Below, piece by piece: positions 594 to 20,612 of a stretch of 20,612 nucleotides of DNA (the stretch's first letter is position 1; every line of letters begins with the position of its first letter). Under the pieces are notes generated by a model. That model was given only the letters and a program-made list of their open reading frames with translations, searched no databases and was not told the DNA's origin. The stretch is from Bilabrum cf. latius (Eukaryota). The DNA lies in the NCBI GenBank assembly GCA_965178125.1, contig OZ237740.1, positions 1,488,001 through 1,508,612 of the forward strand, read 5' to 3'. The translations under genes were made by a program, and so were the position numbers.

Positions 594-897
594 GATGTGT
601 GCAGTTTTGATGGCGTGTTGGGCGCTCCGGCAGCCTACCGACTTCAGGGTTTAACTTGCTTCTTGAGTTGAAATGGACAGCCAGCGTTCAGTAGAAGACA
701 ACTCGGACCGCTGCTGCGGCGTGCCACACGCTGTGCGGTGTAGGACTCGTACAAGACGCTTTGTTCGCCACCGCGAATGAATTTTGCCATGATACTGCCT
801 CAAACCCACAACTGCAAGCACTCAACACGCCCGTCCGACGCGTATTCGGAGCCACTGCCAGTGCCAGCATCCAGCGCAAACAACACAGATTTAATTG

Positions 898-2754
898 ATG
901 CAGCAAAGTGCCGCAAAGACAGTATGCACAGTTTGCAAACTTCATCCTAGCAAGTACAAGTGCCCGCGATGCTCCGTCCAGACGTGTTCTTTGGGCTGCG
1001 TCTTGAGCCACAAACAACAGACTGGCTGCAGCGGCAAGAAAGAAGCTGTTCCGTTCATTGCTGTCAAAGAGTATACCGACAAGAAATTCCACAGGGACTA
1101 TCATTTGTTAGAGTCTATGGCGCAAGCATCTGATGCTGCACGGCGGGATATTCGGCAGTATGGCACTCAAATCGGTGCGAGCCGGCAACGCGGACGGAAA
1201 AAGCAGCCAGAAACGTCAAAATGGAACGAATCACTGCAAATGGACGGGCTACAAAACTCCCCAAAGCTCCCTACTCTGCCAAGACCGCTGTATCGTCTCG
1301 TGATGGCAGCAAGACAACGGGGAATCGATCTGCGTCTCATGCCAAAGGGGATGGTGAAGAGGGATACGAATACAACGCGGTTGTGCTCGTCTCGAAGTTT
1401 GTGCGGTATATTGCCAAGTAGAGGATCTGTGCTGGCTCATAGGGTTGCCAACGGGAACAGACCCTCACCTGGGACGTCTGTCGTTGTTAGTCCAGCATAC
1501 GCAGCGGGGCGACTAGCGTACGGTCTGGTTGGGACGCAACCGACTGGCGTTTCGGAGTCAGATCAAAAGCGACGGCAGCCTAGCTCTATAGCACCTCACT
1601 CGCAGAGTGAAGCGATAGATCGATCACGAGCATCAAGGAGGCGGTCCAACCGGAAGCGGCGCCGCATCGAGGTCGAGACCCGCACGGTTGCAAGCACGGT
1701 CACACCGCAGTCTGGAGAAGAGTTGCGAGCAGAAAATGAAATAGAAGATCCACGAGAATCAAAGAAATCAAGAGTAGGGCAGCTGGAGAGCCAACCGGGC
1801 AGGTTGGTTGGGCCGAAGGATACCGCCGCAGACCAGCAGTCGGCTGGGCCGAAGGATACCGCCGCAGACCAGCAGTCGGCTGGGCCGAAGGATACCGCCG
1901 CAGACCAGCAGTCGGCTGGGCCGAAGGATACCGCCGCAGACCAGCAGTCGGCTGGGCCGAAGGATACCGCTGCAGTCAGGCAAACTCTTGAGTCTGGCAC
2001 ATCTTCCTAGGCTGCCGGGTAGGTGATATGCTGGAAAGTTGAGATCATTGTGCGCTTCGCTCTGAGCGAAACTCGAGGTGCGCCATCGAAGGGCACCCCC
2101 TCGCACGGCATGGCTCAAGTCAGCTCGATTCGAGTCGTGGAGGACCTGGTCCACGAGAATTGCACGCTGCTGGACCTACTAGCAGTCTGGGAGGAAGAGG
2201 TGCACCACCCGCGCTACGCTGCCCTGAGACCCATCTGGAAGCGAGGCAGGGCGCACGAAGCCAGAGAAACTTCGACCTAGGCAAGCAGCACCAGAGGCCC
2301 CACAATCGATCGAGTCAGCTCGGCCCGCGAAGGTACATGCTCAACGAATGGTCCTTCAGGCCACGATGGACCGCCAGCAGCTTCAAAGCGACCTCAGTTC
2401 GTGGCTCTAGTCTAGCGGCCGTTCAGGTACAAAGGCTCTACACAGTTCGTGGCGTTTCCGAGCCCGTCGATACCGCTGCGAAGCATGCTTCAGCACGAGG
2501 CGGTGCTAGAGCACCCCACTGTCCACCTCGTGTGTCTGCCGCCTGGAGATGACCCGCACGGGGCCATTGATGCTGCTACGAGTGCTGCATCTGGCATGTC
2601 GATGCCACCCAGCTAGACGAATGCCAGTGCGATGGATGCGCCAGAGCTGGCCGGCACCTCCCGCGCAGTTCTGACTGGCACTATTGACACGCTGGTACAG
2701 TAGCTAGTGCAGAGGTGTGCAGGTCCAGCTACTGCGGTTGCCCGAGGTACCTGA
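898..2754 (+). CDS. BCD1: Box C/D snoRNP assembly factor BCD1/ZNHIT6 (zf-HIT), about 618 aa when 6 TAGs are read as sense
   Basis: N-terminal zf-HIT CTVC..KYKCPRC...TCSLGCV..HK..TGCSG, then DYHLLE and AARQRGIDLRLMPKGM.KRDTNTT. The same frame continues past TAG 2008, 2020, 2278, 2413, 2614 and 2701 into the BCD1 motifs ICWKVEI, VHENCTLLDLL and LRSMLQHEAVLEHPTVHLV. First TAA/TGA is TGA 2752-2754. Confidence 0.9.
1810..1975 (+). repeat. 36-bp coding tandem repeat, 4 perfect copies plus a partial (GPKDTAADQQSA)
   Basis: gggccgaaggataccgccgcagaccagcagtcggct x4, then gggccgaaggataccgctgcag, within BCD1. Confidence 0.95.
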
Positions 2755-2790
2755 ACACCTGGATCGCGTGCAGCAGCCCATGCAGCATAC

Positions 2791-3914
2791 TTACAGCTTG
2801 GCGCGCGAGTGCAAGGGACGAGCCGTGCCTGCACCACTGCGCTCTTGAATGGCGCGAAAGGACACCTGTTTGCGGGTTGCTGCTCGCTGTGCCGCCGACC
2901 ATGCAGCTGCTTCCATGGACTCGCCGGAATCAAGGCGAGCGAGCAGGCACCCCATCTCAGCCCGTGCTACCTCTTGCACGCGGCTCGACCAGACCCCATT
3001 GACTGCATCGGCGCCTGCAGCTTTGCTTGCCTCGCCGGCAGGGCTCTCGGGGATCCTCGTGGTGGAGTCATCTCCAGCACTCCGCCTCGAGACGCCGCCT
3101 GATCGTAGCAGTGCCTTGCACAGCATGGCGCTCTTGGAGGCGTGCGGCGCTGCAAACATGCGCTCCAGCTGCTCCAGCGCGACCCCGAGGCAGTGCTTGG
3201 CCGGCACTTCGGCGGGGATCACCTCAGTCACCAGGCCCCAGGCTTGCGCAGTCTCTGCAGAGATGCACCTGCCGCAAAACAGGAGCTGAAACGACCTCTG
3301 GTGTCCCTGCGCATCAAAATTGTTGCAATGAGCGGCAATGCCAGTGGTGGCATGCGGGCTGGTGCTGGCAGGCTGCAGGCAGGATCGGATCGACACACTA
3401 CAATTTGACGCATGCGTTTGGGCTTGGTCGTGCGTCTCACAATAGCAGCCGGCAGCAACATAGATGAGCCCAGCTCTGGCACTATGGCCAGCTCGCGGAA
3501 TGGTGCTCGGAAAGATGCCCTTGCCGAAGCGTACACCAGGTCTGCCAGCAGCATGAGGGTAAGGCCTGCACCTATCGCAGGGCCGTGGACCACGGCAACG
3601 ACTGGAACTCGTAACTGAGCCAGCGCCGCCGTCAATTGGTATGCCCCTGCTTGGTCTGGTGACTTTGGAGGCTCATCGGCAGCCGCGACGTCAGCCCCAG
3701 CAGTGAAGTACGGCGACCTTGGATCTGAGCACAGCACCAGTGCGTCGCAATTCCCATTCGCTTCATCGCATAGAGTAGCCAGCTATTTGAACGATCTTCC
3801 GTCGATACTATTGTATCTATCCACTTTTGATATCACGATCACTCGAAACCGCAACGTTGTCTCGCTTGCATTCTGGAACTCATGATCAAAAAATGATATG
3901 GAGGGCGTTGCCAT
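2791..3914 (-). CDS. Crotonase-family enoyl-CoA isomerase/hydratase (ECI2-like), peroxisomal PTS1 -AKL; exons 3914-3441 and 3306-2791, about 329 aa
   Basis: ATG 3914. Motifs YNSIDGRSFK[TAG 3785-3783]LATLCDEA, YFTAGADV, PVVAVVHGPAIGAGLTLMLLADLVYAS, FRAPFRELAIVPELGSSMLLP. Intron GTGAGA(3440)...GCGCAG(3307) joins LLPAAI|GHQRSFQLLFCGRCISAETAQAWGLVTEV. Ends SRAKL-TAA. Confidence 0.9.
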
Positions 3915-4185
3915 AGACAGAATAATCGGCCAATGGAGCCTTATGAGACGCGGTGTTGCATTTGCGGCTGCTTGACCGGTTCTAACCTCATCTCAGCTTG
4001 CGGAAATCTGCAATTGGCCATTGCAAGGCGAACCACTCAAAGACCAAACCCGGCCCGAGCTGCTCAGTCATGATGGTCTGTAGCTCTTATATTCGTCTCG
4101 TGTTGCCGTGATTTGGGCGTCAGTATCTATCTCGTCGGCTGGCATCATCACATCGAATCACAAGGCAAGCCCGACCTCCCAGACC

Positions 4186-6183
4186 ATGGCAGGTGCACTG
4201 TGGGCCTACTTTGATAATTGTTATGGTGTTGATGACAACAAATAGGGAGCTCAATCTGGTGACTAGGTAAACGCTGACGTATTCGCATCAGTTGAAGCCT
4301 GGGAAAGCGCTCTGCCAGGCCAGAGCAGTCGAGAGAGTATGCTTCCAACGGGAAACCGATTGTCTAGAAACCGTGCAAAGTTGCAGGAAATGTTGCTTCT
4401 GGAGTCTCGCAAATCAGAGAGCAGGCAGCTTCAGCAAGCAATGCTTTAGTCGCGTCACGAATAGGAACAAAGGCTTCTTGACAGCAAGATACAAGGGAAA
4501 TGGCGTTCAAACCGGGCCCATGCCTAGATTGCGGCAGCTTCATTTCGAGCCGAGCATGGCTCGTCGCTGTCCTCGAGTGAGCTTGCGGTTGAACGGCATA
4601 GAGCCGTTGGTGCGAGCTCGATGTGTGGCTTCCTGAGCGAGATGGACAAGCTTGAGGACGGATTCGTTTCTAGGCAGGGTTATACGCATGGTGCAGATGG
4701 GATCATTCGGCTGTCTCGCGGGTACAGGAAGTATGTCACGTCTGTACGAGGACGTTTGCTGGAGCATCTCGATTCCAACCGGCACCAGCGTCCCGGGAAA
4801 GACGTTGGAAATGAACCACCAACAGAAGTCGCAACAAGTGAGCGAGGTATTATCGTGAGCGTTAGATCGGCTGGCATGAAGCTAGCTGCGACCAAGGCGG
4901 ACAAACAAGGAGGTGGCATGAACAAGGCTAGGCTACCTGCGACCAAGGCGGACGGACAAGGAGGTGGCACGAAGAAGGCCATGAGGCCTGCAACCAAGGC
5001 TGCTAACAAATCAAGGCCTCCCTCTACAACGAAGGGCCTTGATGTTGATGTTGATGAAATGAAAGTCAAAGTTAATGCCGATGATTCGGACTGCAGGGGC
5101 AGCACCGGCCTGAATAGATATAGGCCATCTCCGCCCTCCCCTACTAGCCGCAAGCTTCAGCAGCAGCAGATAAGATCAACTAAATGGTGGCACCTGCATG
5201 CACTAGATGTCGGCGCTAAGAGGCATACTACCCAATCGGGCCGGCATAGGCGGACGTCCGGTGCCAGGAACGATTTTCAGCCGGACATCCTGATCACGAC
5301 CTTGGAAGGGGTTGAGGGACGGGCGGGCAGACCTGGTGCGCTACCGGTCGTGCGCCCAGATCGTGGCCGCGAGGCAACACCGACCTACAGACCTTTGAGG
5401 GACACCGGGTCAGAGACAATGCGCAAACTTGATGGTGACAGGAAGTTGCCGATTCTGTCTAATTGTTCAGACAGAGCTGGAGGGACTGGGCCATCTATGC
5501 CGACTAGTGCACATCCGCAGGACAAATTGGAGATGTGCGGCCTTCTTTCGCACAGGGGGTTCCGGTGGATGCGTCTGCGACAAGCCGGCTCGGTGCGCGC
5601 CCAGCCCAAGACCAGCGCTGGTGCTAGTGCTGGATCGCCGTCGCCAGGGACGGTTTCAGCGCCAGTGGCTACGACCAGGCAACCTTCACTGCCACTGCCA
5701 GCGCTAGCTGCGCGAGGGAAATCGGGACTTGATGCATCGTTGGCTGACCCTGCACAGTCCGCAGAAGCGCAGGATGATCTACCGGTAGAAGCACCCACTT
5801 CAAGCCGTGGGAGAGCATCGTTCTCTTCTCCTGGCACGGCGCGATCAAGTACCCCGTTTATGGAGGGGTTTCTAGACAAGCATGGTAAACAACGGAATGG
5901 GGGTCCGGTGCGTGCAATGACGACGGTGCGCCGAGGCTTGCGCTTGTCGCAAACATCCCCGAGGGCCCAGGGCATGAGTTTTCCAATGGGCTAGCACCAG
6001 AGGAGAAGACAGCACCAGCGGCCGCAGTGGTCACCGGTCACTGCCGAACAGGCAAAATCTTGGTCGGTCAAGCAACGGCGACAGGAGCTGGCACTGGGGT
6101 GTGTAAGTGGTGAGGTCGTGTCTACGACTGACGCTGCTAAGCCTACTTATGTCACTCGTAGGTAGGGCGGAGGACATGCTTAA
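4186..6183 (+). CDS. Hypothetical protein, about 665 aa with TAG as sense; N-terminal coiled-coil-like segment then low complexity; 3' end uncertain
   Basis: Frame is free of TAA/TGA from 3976 to TAA 6181 and contains TAG at 4243, 4264, 4447, 4462, 4525, 5992 and 6163. First ATG is 4186 (accATGg). A possible intron GTAAGT(6103)...CGTAG(6161) would move the stop to TGA 6321-6323. No family recognised. Confidence 0.65.
4888..5001 (+). repeat. Degenerate 51-bp coding repeat (ATKADKQGGGMNKARLP / ATKADGQGGGTKKAMRP / ATKA)
   Basis: gcgaccaaggcggac units start at 4888 and 4939, and gcaaccaaggct at 4990. Confidence 0.85.
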
Positions 6184-6511
6184 GACCACTCCTCGCCGGC
6201 GAACGAATGGGACAACCGTGGTCAGTAGGTATCCCGGGGTTGCCAGAACCACTGCGTCCCACACCACCAGCAAACCACGTGCAGTATGCGGCGTGCAGAC
6301 GGGCTACTGTTGTGCTATGTTGATATCAAGATGTGGCTGTGCCTGCCCACGCCACCGCCACATTTCTTTCTGTGTCATTCTGCATTCTGTTAGGCCCACG
6401 CCCGGATGGATCCGGAGTCGTTTCGTCCGTGGCTCGGTGCACAATTCTCTTTGTGCTGCCCAGTGTCCAGGTATTGGCTTGTCATCATTCGTAGTACTAG
6501 CCGGAGTAACT

Positions 6512-7503
6512 ATGGATGGTGTTGGAAAGTCAATGATGAGATCCCTCGGTCGGAAAACAAATGAAGGAGCAGGTAGTGCAGTGTCGTCCTTCGCTCTCAA
6601 GCAGTTGGAGAAATTTGGTTGGAAGTCGGGAATGGGGCTTGGTAAGGAAAAATAGGGCAGAAAAGAGCACGTGCGTGTGAAAAAGAAGGATGATAACACT
6701 GGGGTGAGGTTTGTAGCAGCTATGCAACTGCAATTTCCCGTGTTCGTCATGGTTGCCCGCTTCCAACACAGTTGGTGTGCCCGTCACTTTACTTTTCCCC
6801 ACGACAGATTGGAGCAGATGCTGCAAAAGCTAGTTAGATGGCATCGCAGTGGTGGTGGTCGTCGCACTCAGCTCCAAGCGTGAAGGCTGACGCTTCTTTG
6901 CTCTCCTCGAGTGCGCCGAGCAGCAAAGATGCGCTCAGCAGCTCCAAACTAGACCTTGATACTAATAATACTAGACCATCCAAGTCGATAGGTAGCGATG
7001 GCCGTAGTCGCAGCCGTAGCGACAGCGACAGCGATAGCGACAGCGATAGCGACAGCGACAGCGATGGCGGTGGTGCCCCAGGTGTCATTGGCTGGGCAGG
7101 GTAGGCACCCCCTTCGGACGCAGAATTATTTCGAATGTGCGGGGGCAAGCGACTTGGAATGCGAGCAAGGTCCTCATAGCAAGGCAAGTGGTTGAGGGTA
7201 GAGGGAGACGTGCTGGAGGGGCGGCTTTCGAAGGAGATGGGCCAAAAACGGCGGAGGACGCAGGATTCTGCAGACGTAGTCGAATCGTCGGACAGGGCCA
7301 CTATGAAGGAACCATCAGCAGCGAGCGCATCAAAGAAGCCAAGAGTTGACGAAGCAGAAGTCGCACGCTCAGTCAAGGCTACTGGCTCCATGGATCAAAG
7401 GGGTGGTAGTGCATCGGGGGGAAAGAGCAAAAAACGTGCCACCAAGAAAGCCAAGAAGGAGAAGAAGGCCAAAAAAGACAGGAAGACTGCAACGTCGACG
7501 TGA
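6512..7503 (+). CDS. G-patch domain protein (GPATCH4/PINX1-like); exons 6512-6703 and 6808-7503, about 295 aa
   Basis: G-patch SFALKQLEKFGWKSGMGLGKEK[TAG 6653]GRKEHVRVKKKDDNTG|IGA across intron GTGAGG(6704)...GACAG(6807). Then a WW motif, an SD tract, SDAELFRMCGGKRLGMRARSS[TAG 7177]QGKW and a lysine-rich tail. Other TAGs at 6835 and 7102. Stop TGA 7501. Confidence 0.88.
7018..7065 (+). repeat. (AGCGAY)8 hexamer microsatellite encoding (SD)8
   Basis: agcgac/agcgat run within the G-patch gene. Confidence 0.9.
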
Positions 7504-7859
7504 TAGAGTGGAACCTCACTACCACATTTGCCTTTCGCTGCAATTGATTGTTCCCGTTCGAACTCCAATGCTACCAGTCCTGTACCACTTCCTTGGTCAA
7601 GTGTGGAAGAGTTTTCAAGCTTGCGGGTTCCATGATTATGCTTGTGACCGGATCGAAAGTACCTTCTAAATCTGCGACCAAACTCGCTGCCTGCCAGAAA
7701 ACTTACGGCACTTCGAGCGCCGACATTTGGCCATGGTTCTGGTTCGCGACCTAGCTATGAACTGGCCAAGTATAAAGCTGGTTTAAGGCTCTTGACAAAC
7801 ACAGCGCTCCTCATTCATTCCCGGCATCGACTGTAGATCCCTGTTGAAAGCTGAGGCGA

Positions 7860-10800
7860 ATGCCAGCGAGCACCTTTCTCTCAATTTTGCATGCCATTGC
7901 AAGCAACGATAGCATTGGCATCGTACAGTTTGGGTCGGGCGGCTCTGGTCTCATAATTACGCATGCCAAGATGTTCGAGCAGGCAGTGCTGCCGGCCAAC
8001 TTCTCGACAACGAAATTTGCTAGCTTCTTGCGATCGCTGAGCTACTACGGTGTAAGACACAACGCCGAATGGTAAAATGTAATTCGATGAGTTGTTTCGA
8101 TTTAAAGCAAGTCATTGCTGATCACTAGGCAGTTCCGAGCAGTTCTGATGATTCTCGGCTTTTACTGCACTCGTCAAGTGTTCCCAGAAGCCAACCAGTA
8201 CCGCAGTTTCGACGCGTAAAAAGCAAAGTATTTGATACAGAGAGAGGTACTCGAGATAGGCATGTGGAGTGGTCGCACGACGTGAGCCAAGACTGAGTGA
8301 TTTGGGGAGGCGAGATAGCCCCAACAGTAGGACCGCCTCTCATCCTGCATTGGAACCACTGCTCGCAGAAATTTGTTGCCAACCACCCTGAGCTGGTTAT
8401 CGGTCTGAAACGAGCCGGTCGTGAACCAAAATCTCGGCGAAATCCGGAGGGCCGAGCAAGGAACCGCGGGGCTGCTAGCCAGCAGGTAAGCCCAGGGGGC
8501 AACTCTGTGGCCGGGGCCGCGGGAAGCGCCGCTGGTGGGCTTGGGGGTAAATCTAGTCAACAGGCTGCCGCGGCAACGTCAAAGCCGCTGCGGGACGCAC
8601 CAGCACGAAGCCAGCCAACAGCTGCGCGAGGCGCCCGACGGTCATCCCGGGCGCGACGGGCCCCGAAAGCAGCCTACGAAGAAGTGAGAATCGGCTGTTA
8701 GCCATGATTTCATGCCGTCGTCAATATAGAACTCTTCATTACCCCACCTTCCCTCAGCAAGTTGCCCCTACTCCGCAGTTGCATTCGCGTGGACCGACAG
8801 TGACAGGGCATCCAGCGGCTGGCTCGGGTTCTCGCCCGAGCCCGAACGAGAGAGGGGCAATGGGCACCATCCCATGCGTGCACAATGGACTAGTGGATGC
8901 CAGCCAGGGCTCCTTTCTACCCGCAGTAGCATCGTCACAGTCTATGCAGGTGCGCATGAGCATGCCCCCTCCACGGCAAGACGCGGCACCGTTTGTGAAT
9001 GCAGCGGGTGAAAAGCACCATGAGTCGCAGCAGAGCGTGGCAGATGCGATGCTTGATAGTTACTAGATGTATAAGGACATCCGAGTGAGGTCAACTTCAA
9101 TGCAGGCACCAGGAGCAGCTGGCGGGTGGTCCACCCTGAGGCAGGACGCAGCAGAGCGGTGGCAGCTGCACCAGAACTCACGGGCGGGAGGGCACGGCAT
9201 GCTAGGGCAAGCCTGGCCAGCCAATATGCACTCTGAACGTGGGCCAACCATAAACGTAGCCCAAGAGGGTGATGGGATGTCTATCCTGTCAAGTCCTGCG
9301 GATGCGCGGCCTCCCACCTCCTGGGGCGGCTCGTCATCGTCGGCACTCTCGGCTGCATCTAGGTGGGTGCACTTGCATGGGTCTGTAAATTCTGCCGGGG
9401 ATAGTCGACCTTCAGGGTTGCAGTCGATCGTGCCGCCACCTCCAGTGGACACAGCAGTGGCTGGAGGCATACCGGTGAGTGCAATAACGGTGCCAGTTGG
9501 GCAGGACCTTCGTGGCATGCGAGGGGCAAGCCCACGTGGCGGCACCGTGCAGCAGGACGAAGGGGTCCTGGGTTACGAAAGTAGCGAGGACGTGGCCAAG
9601 ACGCTGGCGTCTATGAGTTCACCCTCTCAATCAGGCCGATACAGCCGCGGGAGCTCACGAGGCAACCGCCGGGGGAGGTTCGTGGCGGCAAGTCGAAGAG
9701 CTAGCCTCGCCGAAATGCAGCAAAGCCCTCTGGCAGGTGCTGTGCGGGGTTTCGAGGCTCCACAGACCGGGCAGTCTTTTCCGCCAGCCTCGTGGTCTTT
9801 AACCAGTGGCTCTGCACACCAAACCGACGATTCGAAGCGTCGATCAAGCTCGAGGTATGACTCAGAGACGAACCCGACTCAACTCGGGTTGTCCTCTCGG
9901 ATAAGCTCCACGCACCGGGGATCGGGCAAGGCTGCCGGGTCTCGGAGTGGAACGGACATCGGCGTGTCCAATGACCAGAGCAACACAGCCAGTGCGATTC
10001 AACGCGACACGTGGTCAACAGGCTCGGGCTCAGAGCGAATGACAGACAGGGCGCTTCCACCATCGCCACAAGGCAACGCTTAGGCTGAATTACCGGACCA
10101 CAGCGGTGAGATGGGCGGTGATACCACCCGCTCCGGGTACCAGATAACGCCTAGCAGTATCACTGGTGTTGGGAAGCAGCAGGATGTGCTGGCTTGGCCC
10201 TCTGGGCATCCTTGGACGCTGCATCGGAAGGTGTCGACTGAGCCTGCAGCGCTTCGTCGGGTGCATTTTCGTGTGCCAAGGCTTGGCGAGGCGCAGAGAT
10301 CAGGGTATAAACGACCGAGAGCTGAAAATGGGGACGTTTCTGGCGAGGGGCAAATGCAAAAACGTGCTCGAACAGAGGTCAATGCAAGCCGCGGCATGGG
10401 TTCTGCGGGGTCGCAAGCAACGTCGCCGAGCAGCAGCACTGGTGTACAGTCTGCAGTCCCATTTGGAGGGCCAACCAGCAGGAACAACGAATCGCGGGCT
10501 GATCAGGCCAACCGCAATCGAATTCGTCCCCTACAGTCCGATGGGCCCTCCGCTGCTGAAGTTGTCCAGCTCGAGCACGTCGGACACCCAGGAGCTTCTC
10601 GGAGGTCCAGCGGATCAGGCCCCTCCGTCGCTTGGTCCTTCGACGAATCAGGCTCGGCCCTCTGGACACGCCGCAATGCTAGCCGGAAATCGCCCAATCT
10701 AGCCCGGCCTGCTGCTGCAGGGTAGTCCCTAGGTGCGTGCAGCAGCGATGGCAGCATTACGACCATGGGCGTGTCCCCCCCCCCGTCCGGGTGGCAGCTG

Positions 10801-11838
10801 GGCCAAGCCATTCCCGGGGGCGTGCAGCATCGCCTTGATGCTGCTTCGTTAATGCAGTCTGCTAAATCGGCTGGCACCCCTCCGGGTGGCCTTATGAACG
10901 GTGCTGCTAGATCCATGCTCTCTCGAGCAGGAGGGTTTGACAGAATCGCAGTCTACCACGGGTCTGCATCTGCCCAGCAGCCCGCTGTTCCGAGCTTTTA
11001 GCCTGTGCCATAGCCACAAGCGGGTAGTCTACACCATCCATAGTATTCGCATCGAGCTTAGCGGTATAGCGCTATGATGACTGCAGGCCGGTCGCCGACG
11101 GTGACAGCTTCGCGTCGGTCCTGGGACTCGGGTGGGCCTGCAATGCAAGCCTCGGTTCGCACGCAGGCAGGTAGCTCTGGACCATATGGTCCTGATAGGC
11201 ATTCCGGAGAAGCCTTCTCTTTTGATACCTCCCTCTAGGACGCAGAGATACAGCCTGGCGGCTCGTCGCTCGCCCCACGGCCAGCAACCTACTTACCAGA
11301 AGTGGACCGTCTGTCGGCTGCAGCAGCCCAGGTGATTCGTGTTCGGTAGCGCATGCAATCCATGGCCACTACTAGCTATGAGAACGAGCAAGGTGGCAGC
11401 GAGGCAGCAAGTGGAGAGTTGGGGTAGGATACGAATACCCTTGGTAGGAGCAGCCAGCGGGGCACACGAGGCATCGCGCCGCACCAGAGTATGCTCGGGA
11501 TTCAAGGTTCCTCCGGGGACCATTCTGGTAGAAGTTCACAATCTGCTGCAACGGTTCCGCCGACAGTGTCCTCGGATCACTTCCGCTTGGCCCGAGGTGG
11601 GCCGCCCTCACTGGCTGCTCGCACCACCGAGACTGTGGGCGGTGCGCAACCACCGAGCATACCGAACGGGACTCCTGTGGTGGAGCCGGCTTCAGCTGTT
11701 CAGAATTTAGCCGAGGTGCTTCGTGAAACCCTGGGTCCAGAAGTGGCCGCCAGTCTGGCCCAATAGCTTGCTGACTCCTCCTCGGTAAATGAAAGCGTCG
11801 GCTCAGCGGGCAATGGCGCGCGTGAGAGGCGCGAATGA
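7860..11838 (+). CDS. HSF-type DNA-binding transcription factor with a very long disordered C-terminus; exons 7860-8051, 8207-8281, 8369-8683, 8758-11838, about 1220 aa; start uncertain
   Basis: Spliced domain reads STFLSILHAI...FEQAVLPANFSTTKFASFLRSLSYYG|FRRV...VEWSHD|KFVANHPELVIGLKR, the HSF DBD pattern. Introns 8052-8206, 8282-8368 and 8684-8757 are all GT...CAG. The last exon is a single 3081-nt frame with 11 TAGs and no TAA/TGA until TGA 11836. Confidence 0.85.
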
Positions 11839-11912: not shown

Positions 11913-12525
11913 TTAAACCTCCTGGGGGGACGGAGCCAGAGCAAGCCCAAACACCGTGCATATGCACTCAACATACCCATTGTCGAGGGTAAGTTTGCAC
12001 AAACCTGCAAAATTTGAAGATCATATAGCAAGTAGAAGAAACTAAAGGCTGTAAGTGGCATGCCGTGCCAAGAGCTGAAACGCGCTCACCATCCTTGTCC
12101 CTGTCCCAATACGCGGCTGCCGCCGTATGCAAGCCCGCTCCTACCTTTTGCTGCAAGATGCATGTCACCACATACTTAAATTTCTTTTGTTGCTGTTGCA
12201 AACCCTTGAGGCAGTGTTCAATGATCTGATTGGACCAGAGATTGACCTTGTCTGCCTAAAACGTCGATTCTTTAAGGGTAGCCTTGAGTGCCTGCGTATA
12301 GACTCGATTCGTAAGATTCAACCATCGGTACTGTGTTCATATGAAGGAGTTATCGAATTCGAACAACCAAACTCACATCTCTGACCACGCGTTCGACATC
12401 GTCTACTACAAATTCCTCCTGCGAACACAACAACATACCGATTGAGACCTCGCACTGTCAATCTGCTGCATCTAAGGTATGACAAGTTGGTACATTTTAC
12501 TCACTGCATCTGCACCCATTGCCAT
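11913..12525 (-). CDS. DYNLT1: Dynein light chain Tctex-1 type; exons 12525-12505, 12418-12377, 12291-12090, 12004-11913, 118 aa
   Basis: MAMGADA|EEFVVDDVERVVRD|ALKATLKESTF[TAG 12258-12256]ADKVNLWSNQIIEHCLKGLQQQQKKFKYVVTCILQQKVGAGLHTAAAAYWDRDKDG|LCKLTLDNGYVECICTVFGLALAPSPQEV-TAA. Three GTGAG...GCAG introns of 85-86 nt. Confidence 0.95.
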
Positions 12526-12754
12526 GGCTGCAAAAATACAAGCTGCCCGCGCAGCAGAGGAAGGATAATGCTCAATGGAAAGCAGAAGTTGCCGTTAGCC
12601 AAAGTGCAGGGCACTGTACAGCCAGCTGTGCCGCTTGTTTTTCATCCGGCCAATTGTCGCCAGTCGACCAATGCGGTGGTTGTGCAGGCTTGCTTCCATT
12701 CATGCTTCCTCCCCGATGCGGGCGTATGCAGCATATGATCGCTGAAGGGACTGC

Positions 12755-15700
12755 ATGGGGAACTCTCCCGCAGTCATCGCCTTGGTGATCGCAATTTTGT
12801 CCGGTTCGGAATCGTTTGCTCGCACCCGAGTTGCGATAATTGATACAGGGGTGTCTAAATGTATGGTGTGTCGTCAGAGTAGTCAGGAAGAAGACTAGTG
12901 CAGACATTGCATTTCGACCCTAGAACCGACGCACAGTATTGTCACCGAGCACGTGGCCGACTTGTCAGATTGGGTCGATCGCCATGGACATGGCTCGTTT
13001 GTCGCAGATTAGTTGTTGAGATTTGCGCCAACACGTCCACAAGTTATCTCCATCAAGGCGTTCGATATTGCTGGACAGACCCGCGCCACTTGGATGGTTT
13101 CTGCAATCAAGAAAGCGATTGAAATCAAGGCTCATATCATTCTCCTGAGTAATGGAGCTGCCGAACAGGAAGATGGGGCAGTCGCAGCAGCGATAACACA
13201 GGCCATTCGGTACGGTGCAGCGGTGTTGGCAGCAGCCGGCAACGATGGAGCGTCTCCAGGAACAGTCCTATCCCCTGCGATATTACCGGGTGTTGTTTCT
13301 GTCACTGCGTGTAGTTTCTATCATGCGCATCACCGTCATCCTGATGCGATGCCTGGCCCAGGCTCTAGGTGCCCACTGGAGCTGCTGGAGTTCAGCTCCA
13401 GGGGCCCTGCCGTCTCAGCTGGAGGCCAGCTACGATTCGTAAGCGGTGCCTCGTTGCCTGGATTCAAACTGGCCGGCGTAGGACTGCTTGGTTAGCCGAT
13501 GTACAAGTCAGGGACCAGCGTGGCTGTGCCGCTGATGGCTGCCCTGGTGGCATCTGGGACGCAGTGGGCGAGCGACTTGGTGTGGTGGCAAGCAGAGTGC
13601 GCGCAGGGGAATTTAACGGAATGCTAGGGTGGCCCCACGTATCACCGAGCTGTTCCACAATCGCTTCCACGCTGGGTGCAGCTGGCTGCCTAGCAGCATG
13701 TACGAGCGTGGGCCCGGCTGGGCTCGCTGTGTAATGCTACTTCGTCGCAGTCGTGGTGGGATGAGCTGCGTGAGGCCTGGTCTCTCAAATGGCAGCTGAT
13801 ACGGTCCCACCATAAAGGTGGCATCAGTAATGATTGGGACAATGTGATATCCGCAACAACCCCGAGCAGCATCAAAAAGAGTGGTGGGTAGAGTCCAGCA
13901 TAGACGGGAGTAAAGTGCAGCGCCCTGCACTCTTTGTGCCATATGCTCAGCGCTCATTCTGCCCATTCCATCGATGCCAGTGGCGTGATTCGACCCACTA
14001 AAGGCTTGACACTGGACATGGCCGAGCTCACGCGGGATGAGGCTGCTTGGTTGCATCAGCTCAAAGTGGGTCGTCAGTGCGGGCCATCATCAAGCTCCGG
14101 CCGGTCATCCATTCGTTCATCAGTGCTTTGCAACTCGATTTTGTTTCCTGGGTCTCTGCCGTTGGAATTCTCAGTCGATTTCGTCGGAACTGGGTCAATT
14201 GCCTTCCAGACGGGCAGCAATGCTCTCGCGCAGTGGTCCCCTGTTCGTTGCTGGACTGGGGCCATTGCACTCGTGCCGTGCTCTGAGCGCCAGCTGCTGG
14301 CTGTCTCATAGAGACTCGAGGTGCGAGCATCTCTTGCGGCACAGAGCACAACTTTTAGTGCAGCGCAAGACCTGACCATTCGGATTCAAGTGAAGCCAGC
14401 GGATAGCGCCGCCCTGGCTGCTGGGGAACCACTCGTCTTAGAGGGTGAAGCTGTCGTTGATGTCCCACTCTGCAGACTTGTACCGGACCTAGCCGTCGTT
14501 GCCCTCGAGGCGGCAGCTTAGCACCGATGCAACGGTTGCTCGACCCGCCGATTCGGAGCGTCCGCCCATGTATTTCCAGCCCATATCGCATGGGCCGTTG
14601 GAAACGAATCGAGCTCCGAACATGAAGCGGTGGAATACTGCCAGCACCCCAGTGGGATATCAACAACCACAGTGAAGACCCGATTCAGGTTTCACTCCCG
14701 AAAACCACCGTAGCGGTTCCGTATGGCCGTAGACACGCATCATTCTGCAGCGTTTCCTCGAGCAAAGAGCTACCGAGACGATCTTCGAGCTGCATCGACA
14801 GCAATGGACGCTGCGGGAGACTCAATTCGCACCAACTTTGGCCAACTGCTACAGGTGGCTGGCACGCAGGGTGTTATCCTGGACGAGGTCCACACGCACT
14901 TATACACTGTAAACCTTTGCCAGTACGGTGCAATCATCATTCCCGATACAGAGGTCCCGTTTTCAAGTGCCGAGAAGTAGCACCTGTGGGGAGCAGTTTG
15001 GCCGACCATCTTTACGAGCTAGACACAAACGAGCGATCGTGGCAGCCAAGCATCAGAACAACCGGATGAGTGCAGGCCGACTAGTGTCATCGTACTAGCT
15101 GAGTGGGATGACAAGCGTCTGTATCCTGGTGGGCCGATATGGAACCAGAACGAGCAGACTTGGTGGACTTACAGTTCCCCGGGAACCCAATCCGGCGTAG
15201 TTGATGCGATTTTGGAGCCTGCACAAGTGCGTATGGTTCCTAGATCTGCATCTGGAGTGGTAAGGTAGTCTCTCAGGTCGAGCGAGTTGGTGCTCCCCTC
15301 CTGCCATGACCCCATAATGGCTGAACTACGATCTGCTTCACCCATTGGAGGGCTGCCTCGCGGAGCCCTCATGCAGTTCGCGTGGATGCGCGATGACGTT
15401 GTGGATGGCAGTGCTCGTTCGCACGATGGAACTGCTTCAACTACAAGCCAATAGCTCGGGCCGTTTGCTGATGAGCTCCAGGTGCCAGCCGATCGGTCGG
15501 GCCTTTCGCCATTCGGCTAGGCTGGGTGTGAGCAGCAGCTCTAGTGTTCCAAATGGGGCGTGGTGATCGCTGCTCTTGATGAAGAAACCTCATTCCGTGC
15601 TGCGACTGGGTTTTGTAGGTACCGGAACGCCGTCAATATTGGTGCAGTGAGTGCACGTCCGGAACCCTGCGCAACTGATACATCTAGTCGAGTCCCTGGA

Positions 15701-16240
15701 ATACCGTCAACGAGCAACGCTACCCACGTATCAGCGGCACGCGCGCAGACTGCTGGCCGGATCGTTGTGTTCAGTGATACCGCTTGTTTCGATTCTGATT
15801 ACAGATGGCCGTCGAGCTCGGTTGATCCTGATGCACCACGAGCATCCAGACTGTTCTGTCGCGGACTACTGCAGCATATGATCCGGTATGCAGCATTCGG
15901 GCGCAGGCAAGATGCCGCAGTGTTCGCGCAGAGTGGGCCACTTTCGCACCATTTCATCGATCCAATCATACTGCAGTAGGCTGCTGCTGAGAAAACATCG
16001 GCAGACAGCAGGTCGGTAGCCAGAGCAACTCCTCACGCCCACAGCAGGCTTCGGTCGTCTCCTCGCAGCACAACGCCCCGCACGGAGGGTCCCCGAGCTG
16101 ACAGTGTTGGTGTTTGGCTTGGGCCTGAGCCGCGGGTCGGGCAATGCGAGCAAGAAGATGTTCAAACGGTATCGGCTGATATTTCGCTGGCAATAGCGGA
16201 TGTATTGGGTGCCTGCGATTAGGCCAGCGGCCCTTGCTAA
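12755..16240 (+). CDS. Site-1 protease (MBTPS1/SKI-1)-like subtilase (S8), apparently single exon, about 1161 aa with 18 TAGs read as sense
   Basis: Signal-peptide-like MGNSPAVIALVIAILSGSESFA. Catalytic motifs VAIIDTG (D 12842), HGHGSFVA (H 12989), AAGNDG, FSSRG and SGTSVAVP (S 13517). S1P-type C-terminal motifs RDDLR...D..GDSIRTNF, QYGAIIIPDTE, VIVLAEW...TWW and GRIVVFSDTACFD. All in one frame ending TAA 16238. Confidence 0.88.
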
Positions 16241-17663: not shown

Positions 17664-19190
17664 ATGCAAGAGGAAAAGAAGTTATTGCCTAAGCGGACAA
17701 GCCGTGGAAGGCGCAACACAGCACTAGTTGGAGAAGCAGCAGATGCTGACAAGAGCTTTTGGGACCAGGATGCCTTCAAGGAGGATTCTGGCGATAGTGA
17801 GTTCGACTCAACTGATGCATCTTCGGACAGTGAGGACAGTGATATAGATAACGATGAGGGCGACGCCGCCAATGATGACGGTGAAGAAGCGGACGATGAT
17901 CTCGAGGCCGGCCAGCAAGCGAAAAGGGTATACCTTGACCCTGCCCTTCGCCGAAAGATGGGCATAAAAGGGTTGATGTCCGGAGTTCTGGGAGCATAGG
18001 ATAGTGACACCTCTGGATTTGACGCGAAGCCGATCATATTTGATGCCTCAGTGGAACTTGACAGTCGAGCACGAGAGTATCTCGATAGAGTATTGCGGCG
18101 ATAGGCAGAATTGCAGTCTCTGGAAGCAAAAAATCGCGGTGCGCAATATTTTCCTGACATAGACTCAGCCAGTGATGATGGCTCGGGTTCGACTTTGGCA
18201 GACCAGCTCAACCTTGAGTCCGAACCAGAACTTCCCACTAGAGAGAGCGGACCTCTCGACCCGACAGTGGTATTGCGAAGTGCTGCGGAAACAGCCATGG
18301 CATCGTTGGAGTCGCTTCAGTCTATGACAGCTGCTGCAGCAGATGGAAGTGCTCATCGCAGCAAAGGTGTGGGACGTGGACGTGATCGGCTCGCTCACAC
18401 ATCCGGTGCCACTGCAGATAGCCACCAGTCACTGGGTGTTGCTCCACTTCTGTTAGGCAAGAGCATGCACAGAGCAAGCACATTTCTAGTGACTACAGCT
18501 GCAGCTGGAGGTGTGGCTGGCCTGCTGGATGCATTTGTAGATGACTCTGCTTCCATCGGAGCTGTAGGCTAGTCAGATTTCACCTCGGTTACCCGATCCA
18601 GCTTGAGCTCGGCGGCGCAAAGACAGCTAGCATCTGTGCCATTCGTGTCTCCTGCTGCAGCTCTCGGTGCGTCTGCAGGGGATGCATACCGTGCTGCGAG
18701 GCGGGAAGTGGAGCGCGCAGTGGAGACAGCACAACCGGGGCTCGAGCTGGGCAACAAAAGACAGCGGGGTGCAGCGGCTGCGGGTCGGGGCAGAGGCAGG
18801 GGAAGAGGGAGAGGAAGGGGGAGAGGAAGGGGTAGAGGTAGGGGTGGTGGAGGACGGGGAGGGGGTGGTTCAGCAAGCAGCTACTAGGTGCCTGCACAGA
18901 GAGCAACAAAGATTCGACGCATTTCCACGATTCGTCAGACTGCTGGGACGGCTTCTGCCTCGGCAGCTGGGGCGCCGTCAGGCACTCGATCGGAAATTGT
19001 GCTCCTTGACCAGCTTGGGCAGGTCCCACGCACCCTGCAGGCTGTTGCACCTCCCCCTATGCCACGAGTGTCCAGGCCTGCGGTCGCTGCTTCCCAGGAG
19101 CAGCCTGGGGACAGCGTGCAGAACTGGTTCGTGGTTCGTGGGTCATCGGACACGGCTGCGTTCATGCAGCCCATTCGAAAATTAAAGTGA
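17664..19190 (+). CDS. VPS72: VPS72/YL1/Swc2 (SWR1/SRCAP H2A.Z chaperone subunit), about 508 aa with 4 TAGs read as sense
   Basis: LPKRTSRGRRNTALVGEAADADKSFWDQDAFKEDSGDSEF...DSDIDNDE matches the YL1 N-terminus, followed by RVYLDP and VLRSAAETAMASLESL. Frame runs through TAG 17997, 18102, 18570 and 18885 to TGA 19188. A possible short intron 19187-19236 would move the stop to 19249. Confidence 0.8.
18783..18869 (+). repeat. Gly-Arg (GR)n / RGG coding tract
   Basis: GRGRGRGRGRGRGRGRGRGRGGGGRGGGG encoded with mixed codons within VPS72. Confidence 0.9.
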
Positions 19191-19487
19191 GTGATAAAAT
19201 GCAGTGTGGCTGGCCATGTAGACTCCTATTTTGCAGAGCGCAATGTTGAAGAATAATGCGGCTTGCAATGCTCACCCGATCCTGGGTAGGAGGCCCTCAG
19301 CAAGATGCATTTATCCGGCCATTCGCGTGATTTGTGGTGTGCATAGCAGTGGCAAGCTCACCTTGGCAACAAGTGGGACTCCCTGTTCGAATGGAAAGAG
19401 TTGAAACATGCTCTGGGGCCAGGACCCACCTCCCAGCTCCCGCGCACAGCACCTCAACCGCCCTCCGTGCCCATCCTACAAGCATTC

Positions 19488-19629
19488 ACTTCCCATCCGC
19501 CGCACTCACTGTCCATCTTCCAGCTCCCTGACTTCCCATCCGCCGCACTCACTGTCCATCTTCCAGCTCCCTGACTTCCCATCCGCCGCACTCACTGTGC
19601 ATCTTCCAGCTCCCTGACTTCCCATCCGC
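19488..19629 (+). repeat. Subtelomeric 43-bp tandem repeat, about 3.3 copies
   Basis: acttcccatccgccgcactcactgtccatcttccagctccctg at 19488, 19531 and 19574 (one C>G), plus a partial at 19617. Confidence 0.95.
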
Positions 19630-19640
19630 GACTCCACAGA

Positions 19641-19687
19641 TAGGGTAGGGGTTGAGGGGTTTAGGTGGGTTTGGGTTAGGGGGTTTT
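19641..19687 (+). repeat. Degenerate telomere-variant repeats
   Basis: tagggtaggggttgaggggtttaggtgggtttgggttagggggtttt immediately precedes the perfect array. Confidence 0.85.
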
Positions 19688-20612
19688 TTAGGGTTAGGGT
19701 TAGGGTTAGGGTTAGGGTTAGGGTTAGGGTTAGGGTTAGGGTTAGGGTTAGGGTTAGGGTTAGGGTTAGGGTTAGGGTTAGGGTTAGGGTTAGGGTTAGG
19801 GTTAGGGTTAGGGTTAGGGTTAGGGTTAGGGTTAGGGTTAGGGTTAGGGTTAGGGTTAGGGTTAGGGTTAGGGTTAGGGTTAGGGTTAGGGTTAGGGTTA
19901 GGGTTAGGGTTAGGGTTAGGGTTAGGGTTAGGGTTAGGGTTAGGGTTAGGGTTAGGGTTAGGGTTAGGGTTAGGGTTAGGGTTAGGGTTAGGGTTAGGGT
20001 TAGGGTTAGGGTTAGGGTTAGGGTTAGGGTTAGGGTTAGGGTTAGGGTTAGGGTTAGGGTTAGGGTTAGGGTTAGGGTTAGGGTTAGGGTTAGGGTTAGG
20101 GTTAGGGTTAGGGTTAGGGTTAGGGTTAGGGTTAGGGTTAGGGTTAGGGTTAGGGTTAGGGTTAGGGTTAGGGTTAGGGTTAGGGTTAGGGTTAGGGTTA
20201 GGGTTAGGGTTAGGGTTAGGGTTAGGGTTAGGGTTAGGGTTAGGGTTAGGGTTAGGGTTAGGGTTAGGGTTAGGGTTAGGGTTAGGGTTAGGGTTAGGGT
20301 TAGGGTTAGGGTTAGGGTTAGGGTTAGGGTTAGGGTTAGGGTTAGGGTTAGGGTTAGGGTTAGGGTTAGGGTTAGGGTTAGGGTTAGGGTTAGGGTTAGG
20401 GTTAGGGTTAGGGTTAGGGTTAGGGTTAGGGTTAGGGTTAGGGTTAGGGTTAGGGTTAGGGTTAGGGTTAGGGTTAGGGTTAGGGTTAGGGTTAGGGTTA
20501 GGGTTAGGGTTAGGGTTAGGGTTAGGGTTAGGGTTAGGGTTAGGGTTAGGGTTAGGGTTAGGGTTAGGGTTAGGGTTAGGGTTAGGGTTAGGGTTAGGGT
20601 TAGGGTTAGGGT
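19688..20612 (+). repeat. Telomere (TTAGGG)n, about 154 copies
   Basis: Uninterrupted TTAGGG array to the window end, G-rich strand running 5'->3' toward the terminus. Confidence 0.99.

Follow-up and report, generated by a model that had tools for sequence, protein, structure and literature searches.

In-frame TAG and a probable TAA stop after a candidate peroxisomal targeting signal in a eukaryotic crotonase gene

It is rare for UAA and UAG to change meaning independently of each other, and the lineages in which UAG alone has been reassigned are few: exLh, Iotanema, Scotinosphaera and some ciliates. These lineages show that the eukaryotic termination machinery can distinguish UAG from UAA, which bears on the evolution of the code and on the engineering of amber suppression. 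Here we analyse a 20,612-base stretch of eukaryotic DNA (the window, in whose numbering all coordinates are given) and, within it, a minus-strand gene for a predicted crotonase that has TAG at codon 44 and TAA directly after codons for Ala-Lys-Leu, a candidate type 1 peroxisomal targeting signal (PTS1).

The first cases of UAG as a sense codon with UAA as a stop are those described by Panek et al. 2017 (PMC5304391), in whose account UAG is Leu in exLh, an insect-dwelling rhizarian, and Gln in Iotanema spirale (Fornicata), with UAA and UGA as stops in both. McGowan et al. 2024 (PMC11687900) describe phyllopharyngean ciliates in which UAG is Gln or Leu and UAA is the preferred stop, and they also name Protocruzia tuzeti and the green alga Scotinosphaera and note that TAG is Gln in table 15. 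Scotinosphaera (Scotinosphaerales) is reported by Li et al. 2021 (PMC8271138) to read TAG as Ser; in that study actin, EF-1alpha and histone H3 end in TAA and GAPA in TGA.

On these published descriptions, the code that we propose for the window would resemble each of them. As in exLh and Iotanema, UAG would be translated and UAA would be a stop in a nuclear code outside the ciliates, and the Gln of Iotanema is also the front-runner here. The phyllopharyngean ciliates and Protocruzia tuzeti share the reassignment of UAG alone with UAA as a fixed stop, and Scotinosphaera shares a sense TAG with TAA and TGA as stops. Among formal codes, the best fit to the window is NCBI translation table 15, in which TAG is Gln and TAA and TGA are stops.

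Our overall reading, held with high confidence, is that UAG is read as an amino acid and that UAA and UGA are stops in a flagellated, intron-bearing host. The crotonase gene would accordingly yield a 329-residue enoyl-CoA hydratase/isomerase with motifs like those of ECI2, in which the UAG at codon 44 is translated, most likely as Gln, with Ser or Glu possible. Translation would end at the UAA right after ...HSRAKL and leave a free C-terminal Ala-Lys-Leu, which would act as a PTS1 and bring the enzyme to peroxisomes via PEX5, and the GTAAGT that spans the stop would be a chance match and not a splice donor. A first-pass annotation of this DNA had proposed that UAG and UAA are decoupled here; our analysis supports this, while the lineages named above make it less new than that annotation implied.

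The crotonase gene and its internal TAG

Re-reading the minus strand gave the gene as claimed, with TAG at codon 44 and an end in ...HSRAKL-TAA (Table 1). The start is the first in-frame ATG past an upstream TGA (3914..3912), and the protein of 329 residues is encoded in two exons. Exon 1 matches Pfam ECH_1 with 55.5 bits (cut-off 27) over profile positions 17-143, and exon 2 matches positions 145-204 (18.7 bits, by itself under the cut-off). Among PDB crotonase sequences, 111 match exon 1 at E <= 0.001 (best, 5ve2, E 1.1e-19), and those aligned to exon 2 begin from about chain position 148-186. In an alignment of 10 sequences, P146, E147, G111, G115 and G117 do not vary; we take them to be the active-site Pro-Glu and the oxyanion-hole glycines, and assign the predicted protein to the crotonase superfamily.

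The reading frame changes after exon 1, and a GT..AG intron of 134 nt brings it back. One contig of run X8 skips exactly these 134 bases (CT..AC on the plus strand), and in NCBIfam NF006699 exon 1 covers profile positions 21-159 and exon 2 positions 160-225, so that the two abut across the intron, as they likewise do in PDB chains; the contig joint and the continuity in NF006699 together establish that the intron is real. The contigs used here belong to runs X1, X6, X7 and X8, of which X6 and X7 come from other studies; the kind of run is a guess on our part, and the contigs can show the presence of a form, not its absence. Though spliced in the X8 contig, the crotonase intron is kept in contigs of X6 and X7, for which intron retention, antisense read-through from the neighbouring BCD1 gene or DNA in those runs are possible causes. 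Two more distant relatives of exon 1, P0003 and P0006 (48% and 57% identical), break off at the intron position and read into GT..., and this position seems to be conserved in a wider group of eukaryotes.

Reading through TAG lengthens the longest frames of the window from 488 codons to 1,164, 1,095, 735, 619 and 511, while reading through TAA instead leaves the longest frames almost unchanged. Across ten genes with 5,062 candidate codons, TAG occurs in frame 53 times and TAA and TGA not at all (0 each), compared with 110 TAG, 50 TAA and 201 TGA in the two off-frames of the same stretches together. TAG is as common in frame as it is per off-frame, and TAA is excluded from the frame. The stretches were picked as frames free of TAA and TGA, by which the zeros are partly built in; the lengths are not.

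The TAGs also lie within conserved sequence, inside the ECH_1, BCD1, G-patch, Tctex-1, Peptidase_S8 and MBTPS1_4th matches, six domains in all. In BCD1, for example, profile positions 39-142 correspond to bases 2026..2532 and run across two TAGs, and the Bcd1 zinc finger of PDB 2n94 matches this open reading frame (ORF) with E 2.7e-8. In the crotonase, homologue alignments continue across codon 44, whose TAG has 0 other letters in X6 record 11 and X7 record 19.

Could TAG nevertheless still be a stop, with the crotonase a pseudogene, a start past codon 44, or occasional readthrough only? In its favour, codon 44 is AAG (Lys) in the close relative P0002, which alone would resemble a nonsense mutation in the window; in P0003 it is Arg. 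The in-frame density of TAG, equal to that of an off-frame while TAA and TGA are absent, and its spread over six different domains both speak against this, and the next in-frame Met past codon 44 lies near residue 120, a start that would delete about half of exon 1. The close relative itself, ~90% identical and represented solely by ORF fragments in public assemblies, provides a further argument: its fragments P0153, P0155 and P0154 stop exactly ahead of TAG positions 522, 592 and 759 of the S8 protease in the window, and it has Glu and Phe at two further S8 TAG positions. Since its standard-code ORFs stop at three of the window's TAG positions, the relative most likely shares the code. We find a TAG that still terminates scarcely credible, and conclude that TAG is a sense codon throughout the window.

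The TAA after Ala-Lys-Leu

On the minus strand the 3' codons of the crotonase read CAC TCG CGC GCC AAG CTG TAA GT, that is H S R A K L stop, which places the TAA and SRAKL within positions 2791-2810 of the first-pass annotation, and the overlap of this TAA with a GTAAGT was confirmed on re-reading. Several observations indicate that the TAA terminates translation. First, the chains of the bacterial homologues P0008 and P0009 stop at the position of ...VSF, which lies 21 residues before AKL, or a few residues later (P0008 with ...EKRPAKF); no domain is therefore missing before the TAA, and the 21 residues past ...VSF would form a short tail of the sort that an exposed PTS1 would have. Second, reading past the TAA adds 135 Cys- and Arg-rich codons up to the next TGA, antisense to the BCD1 gene on the opposite strand, whose domain extends to 2532 and whose ORF continues to its TGA. 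Third, the Tctex-1 gene appears to combine the two features again: a TAG lies inside the gene, and the TAA comes at a conserved C-terminus, seven codons past the conserved ...CICTVFGLA with which the Chlamydomonas chain closes. Exon 3 of Tctex-1 matches Tctex chains with E 8.6e-19 and 4.8e-18, and its 29-residue last exon can be aligned with positions 99-114 of Chlamydomonas Tctex1, a chain of 114 residues (E 0.35, weak alone). Lastly, ORFs of the 10 window genes end in TAA in 4 cases and in TGA in 6, most of these ends being predicted only.

BCD1 and the crotonase gene are convergent, with 36 nt between their stop codons, and their 3' untranslated regions (UTRs) must therefore overlap. One X6 contig covers this convergence unbroken (1941..3928).

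The first-pass annotation had argued that one mRNA needs UAG decoded and UAA terminating and had called this direct evidence of decoupling. The first part holds, given the homology across codon 44, the complete fold, the PTS1, the convergent BCD1 gene and the parallel in Tctex-1; "direct" overstates a case that is made by reasoning from sequence.

An ambiguous TAA, sense within genes and stop at their ends as in Blastocrithidia or Condylostoma, would leave no clean decoupling of UAA and UAG. Such codes exist in other organisms, TAA is rare in the GC-rich (guanine- and cytosine-rich) DNA of the window (85 on the plus strand), and the 20-kb window holds few genes (10 counted), all of which weakens our case. 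However, some 25 in-frame TAA would be predicted from the off-frame density (~25 against 0 in 5,062 codons), and frames bounded by TGA only gain just terminal extensions that are antisense to neighbouring genes. The sole TAA that seemed to interrupt a domain, upstream of the CFAP97 ORF, sits in an intron whose donor is GTGAGA. We judge an ambiguous TAA very unlikely, and TAA very probably ends the crotonase gene.

A different challenge comes from the GTAAGT, a generic eukaryotic donor consensus: were it a real donor, the TAA would be intronic, the protein would continue downstream and AKL would not be its C-terminus. Several points speak for this. Hypothetical downstream acceptors keep frames open for up to 167 codons, and X8 record 22, the sole contig listed with the crotonase intron removed, begins at 2872 and does not extend to the stop. 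X6 record 11 and X7 record 17 run collinear across 2794..2789 and also keep the true intron, so that they may represent unspliced RNA, DNA or an antisense BCD1 transcript. On the other side, no contig joint at 2794 is listed in X6, X7, X8 or X1, yet joints of two genuine introns are present in these runs, that of the crotonase (X8) and that of the G-patch gene (X6, X7 and X8, not X1). Together with four more that homology predicts (three of Tctex-1, one of CFAP97), the window has six introns seen or inferred, and the donor is GTGAG, not GTAAG, in 6/6. GTAAGT itself occurs by chance in 8 copies on both strands of the first 19,650 bases; the crotonase fold is complete upstream of it, and any further crotonase exon would lie antisense within the BCD1 coding region. 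We judge the GTAAGT at the stop to be a chance match, and its use as a donor highly improbable.

Two checks proposed in the first-pass annotation bear on this point. At the RNA level, the missing junction and the two collinear contigs agree with termination, and the check is weak in that the bridging contigs keep the true intron. Among orthologue C-termini, the fragment P0152 of the close relative, with 89% identity over 145 aligned residues, likewise has ...HSRAKL ahead of a stop; this does not discriminate, because the same would be seen with a conserved GTAAGT donor. The 12 loci from metagenome contigs were all distant crotonases, matched over no more of the query than residues 1-30 to 1-79, and none was an orthologue; in an exhaustive protein search the nearest relatives, P0002, P0003 and P0006, were exon-1 fragments without C-termini.

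The tripeptide AKL fits the canonical PTS1 pattern, with basic residues (HSR) just upstream, and the last six residues, HSRAKL, are the same in the close relative. Among the 666 frames of the window that are terminated by TAA or TGA, 3 end in [SAC][KRH][LM], and the crotonase gene is the 1 that ends in SKL or AKL. PTS1-bearing auxiliary beta-oxidation crotonases are common in eukaryotes. Given termination at the TAA, import of the enzyme into peroxisomes is likely. The TAA could also be a stop while AKL is coincidental and the enzyme not peroxisomal, in which case the PTS1 argument would add nothing. Only 6 of the 150 best homologues, most of them bacterial-sized proteins, have a PTS1-like C-terminal tripeptide, and the nearest families are bacterial, both of which tell against our reading. 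The chance rate of a PTS1-like ending is ~0.5% (3/666), however, the basic residues and the identity of all six terminal residues in the relative speak against coincidence, and among the best longer matches P0004 has ...KKAKL near its end and P0005 ends ...NKL. We consider a coincidental AKL unlikely. The argument from a PTS1 before UAA is sound and reusable: a localisation signal that is active only at a free C-terminus is a cheap general check that a codon terminates.

The description of the enzyme as ECI2-type, also made in the first-pass annotation, is plausible at most. Like ECI2/PECI-type isomerases, the predicted protein has a crotonase fold, the motif F-x-A-P-F...P-E-x-x-S-S, which it has in common with the ECI2-like P0004, and a C-terminus of PTS1 pattern; PDB chains of ECI2 match it with E 1.5e-10. 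Unlike them, it matches bacterial enoyl-CoA hydratase/isomerase entries better (E 1e-19 to 1e-13), exon 2 carries a low-complexity insert of 40 residues, and an acyl-CoA-binding domain was not found, Pfam giving just ECH_1 and ECH_2 on exon 1. An N-terminal acyl-CoA-binding domain is the architecture of metazoan ECI2; here the ORF starts 33 residues ahead of the ECH_1 match. The best NCBIfam models for the crotonase are generic and all far under their cut-offs.

The amino acid at TAG and comparison with published codes

A BLOSUM62 tally of 18 residues aligned to seven TAG positions gave Q 21, E 12, R 8, K 7, S -5, Y -21 and L -28, a ranking driven by the G-patch (Q, Q, E, E, M) and Tctex-1 (Q, S, Q, A) positions. 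Three columns weigh against a clear call of Gln: that of the crotonase (150 homologues; A 73, E 19, R, Q, G and S 10 each, T 7, K 3, D 3, I 2, L 2 and one gap), position 89 of the S8 protease, which is T in subtilisin BPN' and V in human S1P, and the Tctex-1 position, which is S in Chlamydomonas Tctex1. The composition of the residues flanking the 53 TAGs gave no signal for any amino acid. We favour Gln, at about an even chance; Ser is a minor possibility, and Glu, like all other residues taken together, a slighter one. Leu fits badly.

The differences from the published codes, as these are described, run as follows. In exLh UAG is Leu, which has a tally of -28 here. Iotanema is an anaerobe known from its transcriptome, whereas the window is GC-rich, with introns, flagellar genes and a candidate peroxisomal enzyme. 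Unlike ciliates, the window has a telomeric array of 154 TTAGGG copies, 49-61% GC, several genes on both strands of a chromosome end of 20 kb, and spliceosomal introns whose donors are GTGAG; its source is not a ciliate.

For Scotinosphaera the hints point both ways. Compatible with a green alga and with its Ser are the S of Chlamydomonas Tctex1 at the TAG position, in a protein that also has the common ...CICTVFGLA, the T of subtilisin and the small residues of the crotonase column; the GTGAG/GCAG splice sites of the window, which resemble those of Chlamydomonas, and the Tctex-1 C-terminus are hints of a green alga. Against it, the TAG position is Q or E in homologues of the G-patch protein, Q exceeds S in the tally (21 vs -5), and the TTAGGG telomere is not an obvious fit. 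The code of the window is thus one of a known kind, or possibly the published Scotinosphaera case itself. A search of the literature available to us returned no further GC-rich non-ciliate with a UAG-only code beyond the lineages cited, and no paper on a Scotinosphaera nuclear genome.

We tentatively raise, at somewhat less than even chance, an independent new origin of UAG-only reassignment, to Gln or another polar residue and with UAA and UGA as stops, in a GC-rich, flagellated, peroxisome-bearing and intron-bearing non-ciliate. If so, the code change would predate the split from the ~90% identical sister species, since the latter stops at three of the window's TAG positions, and the logic of a PTS1 before UAA would offer a simple one-gene test of stop against sense in such genomes. 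For annotation, the standard code would truncate or split almost every gene of the window, and a code with UAR (UAA and UAG) as Gln would wrongly extend at least the crotonase and Tctex-1 proteins.

Other genes and features of the window

The window has a GC content of 0.49-0.61 and eukaryotic genes on both strands (Table 1). Its 3' end consists of 154 perfect TTAGGG repeats (19688..20612), by which we identify the window as a chromosome end. Within 19482..20612, the array follows on a short stretch of degenerate sequence and on a subtelomeric tandem repeat with a unit of 43 nt, present in 3.3 copies at 19488..19629.

Table 1. Positions of the crotonase gene, its parts and the other genes in the window
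Feature	Position	Strand	Remarks
zf-HIT/BCD1 gene	895..2754	+	6 in-frame TAG; ends TGA 2752..2754
Crotonase gene	3914..2791	-	two exons; ends TAA
Crotonase exon 1	3914..3441	-	158 codons
In-frame TAG, codon 44	3785..3783	-	predicted to be translated
Crotonase intron	3440..3307	-	134 nt; GTGAGA...GCAG; phase 0
Crotonase exon 2	3306..2794	-	171 codons; end ...HSRAKL
Ala-Lys-Leu codons, candidate PTS1	Ala 2802..2800, Lys 2799..2797, Leu 2796..2794	-	
TAA, inferred crotonase stop	2793..2791	-	
GTAAGT overlapping the crotonase TAA	2794..2789	-	hypothetical donor GT = 2794-2793
Further gene	about 4186..6183	+	ORF to TAA 6183
G-patch gene, PinX1/Pxr1 type	6512..7503, intron 6704..6807	+	G-patch match
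1,095-codon ORF	8551..11838	+	12 in-frame TAGs
Tctex-1 gene, last two exons	11913..12291	-	internal TAG 12258..12256; TAA 11915..11913
S8 protease gene, MBTPS1 type	12746..16240	+	Peptidase_S8 and MBTPS1_4th matches
CFAP97 gene		-	domain match
YL1 gene		+	domain match; RG-rich run at 18801..18845

The 1,095-codon ORF matches no Pfam family, and Ser, Gly, Ala and Pro are abundant in its product. The ORF of the MBTPS1-like S8 protease contains 18 in-frame TAGs and has no obvious membrane anchor ahead of its TAA; two adjoining stretches in it resemble the Ser motif, FVSGASLPG... and YKSGTSVAVP.... No tRNA gene and no Rfam match were found in the window, GC by codon position did not tell coding from non-coding sequence, and TGTAA or AATAAA near the gene ends showed no pattern.

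Single contigs of ~3.4 kb from X6 and X7 span 4038..7582 and include both the gene that ends with TAA 6183 and the G-patch gene, which means either that the UTRs of the two genes overlap in a compact genome or that both ORFs share one transcript. Repeats are found within three of the coding regions. In the BCD1 ORF, a 36-nt tandem repeat of 4.6 copies (99% matches) at 1809..1975 encodes a repeated GPKDTAADQQSA unit and sits in a large insert that splits the BCD1 domain, with profile positions 2-34 before it and 39-142 after. In the G-patch protein, an AGCGAC repeat at 7018..7064 corresponds to a run of SD dipeptides, and contigs from elsewhere in the genome join there as loose ends. The GGAAGGGGTAGA repeat at 18801..18845 corresponds to the RG-rich run in YL1.

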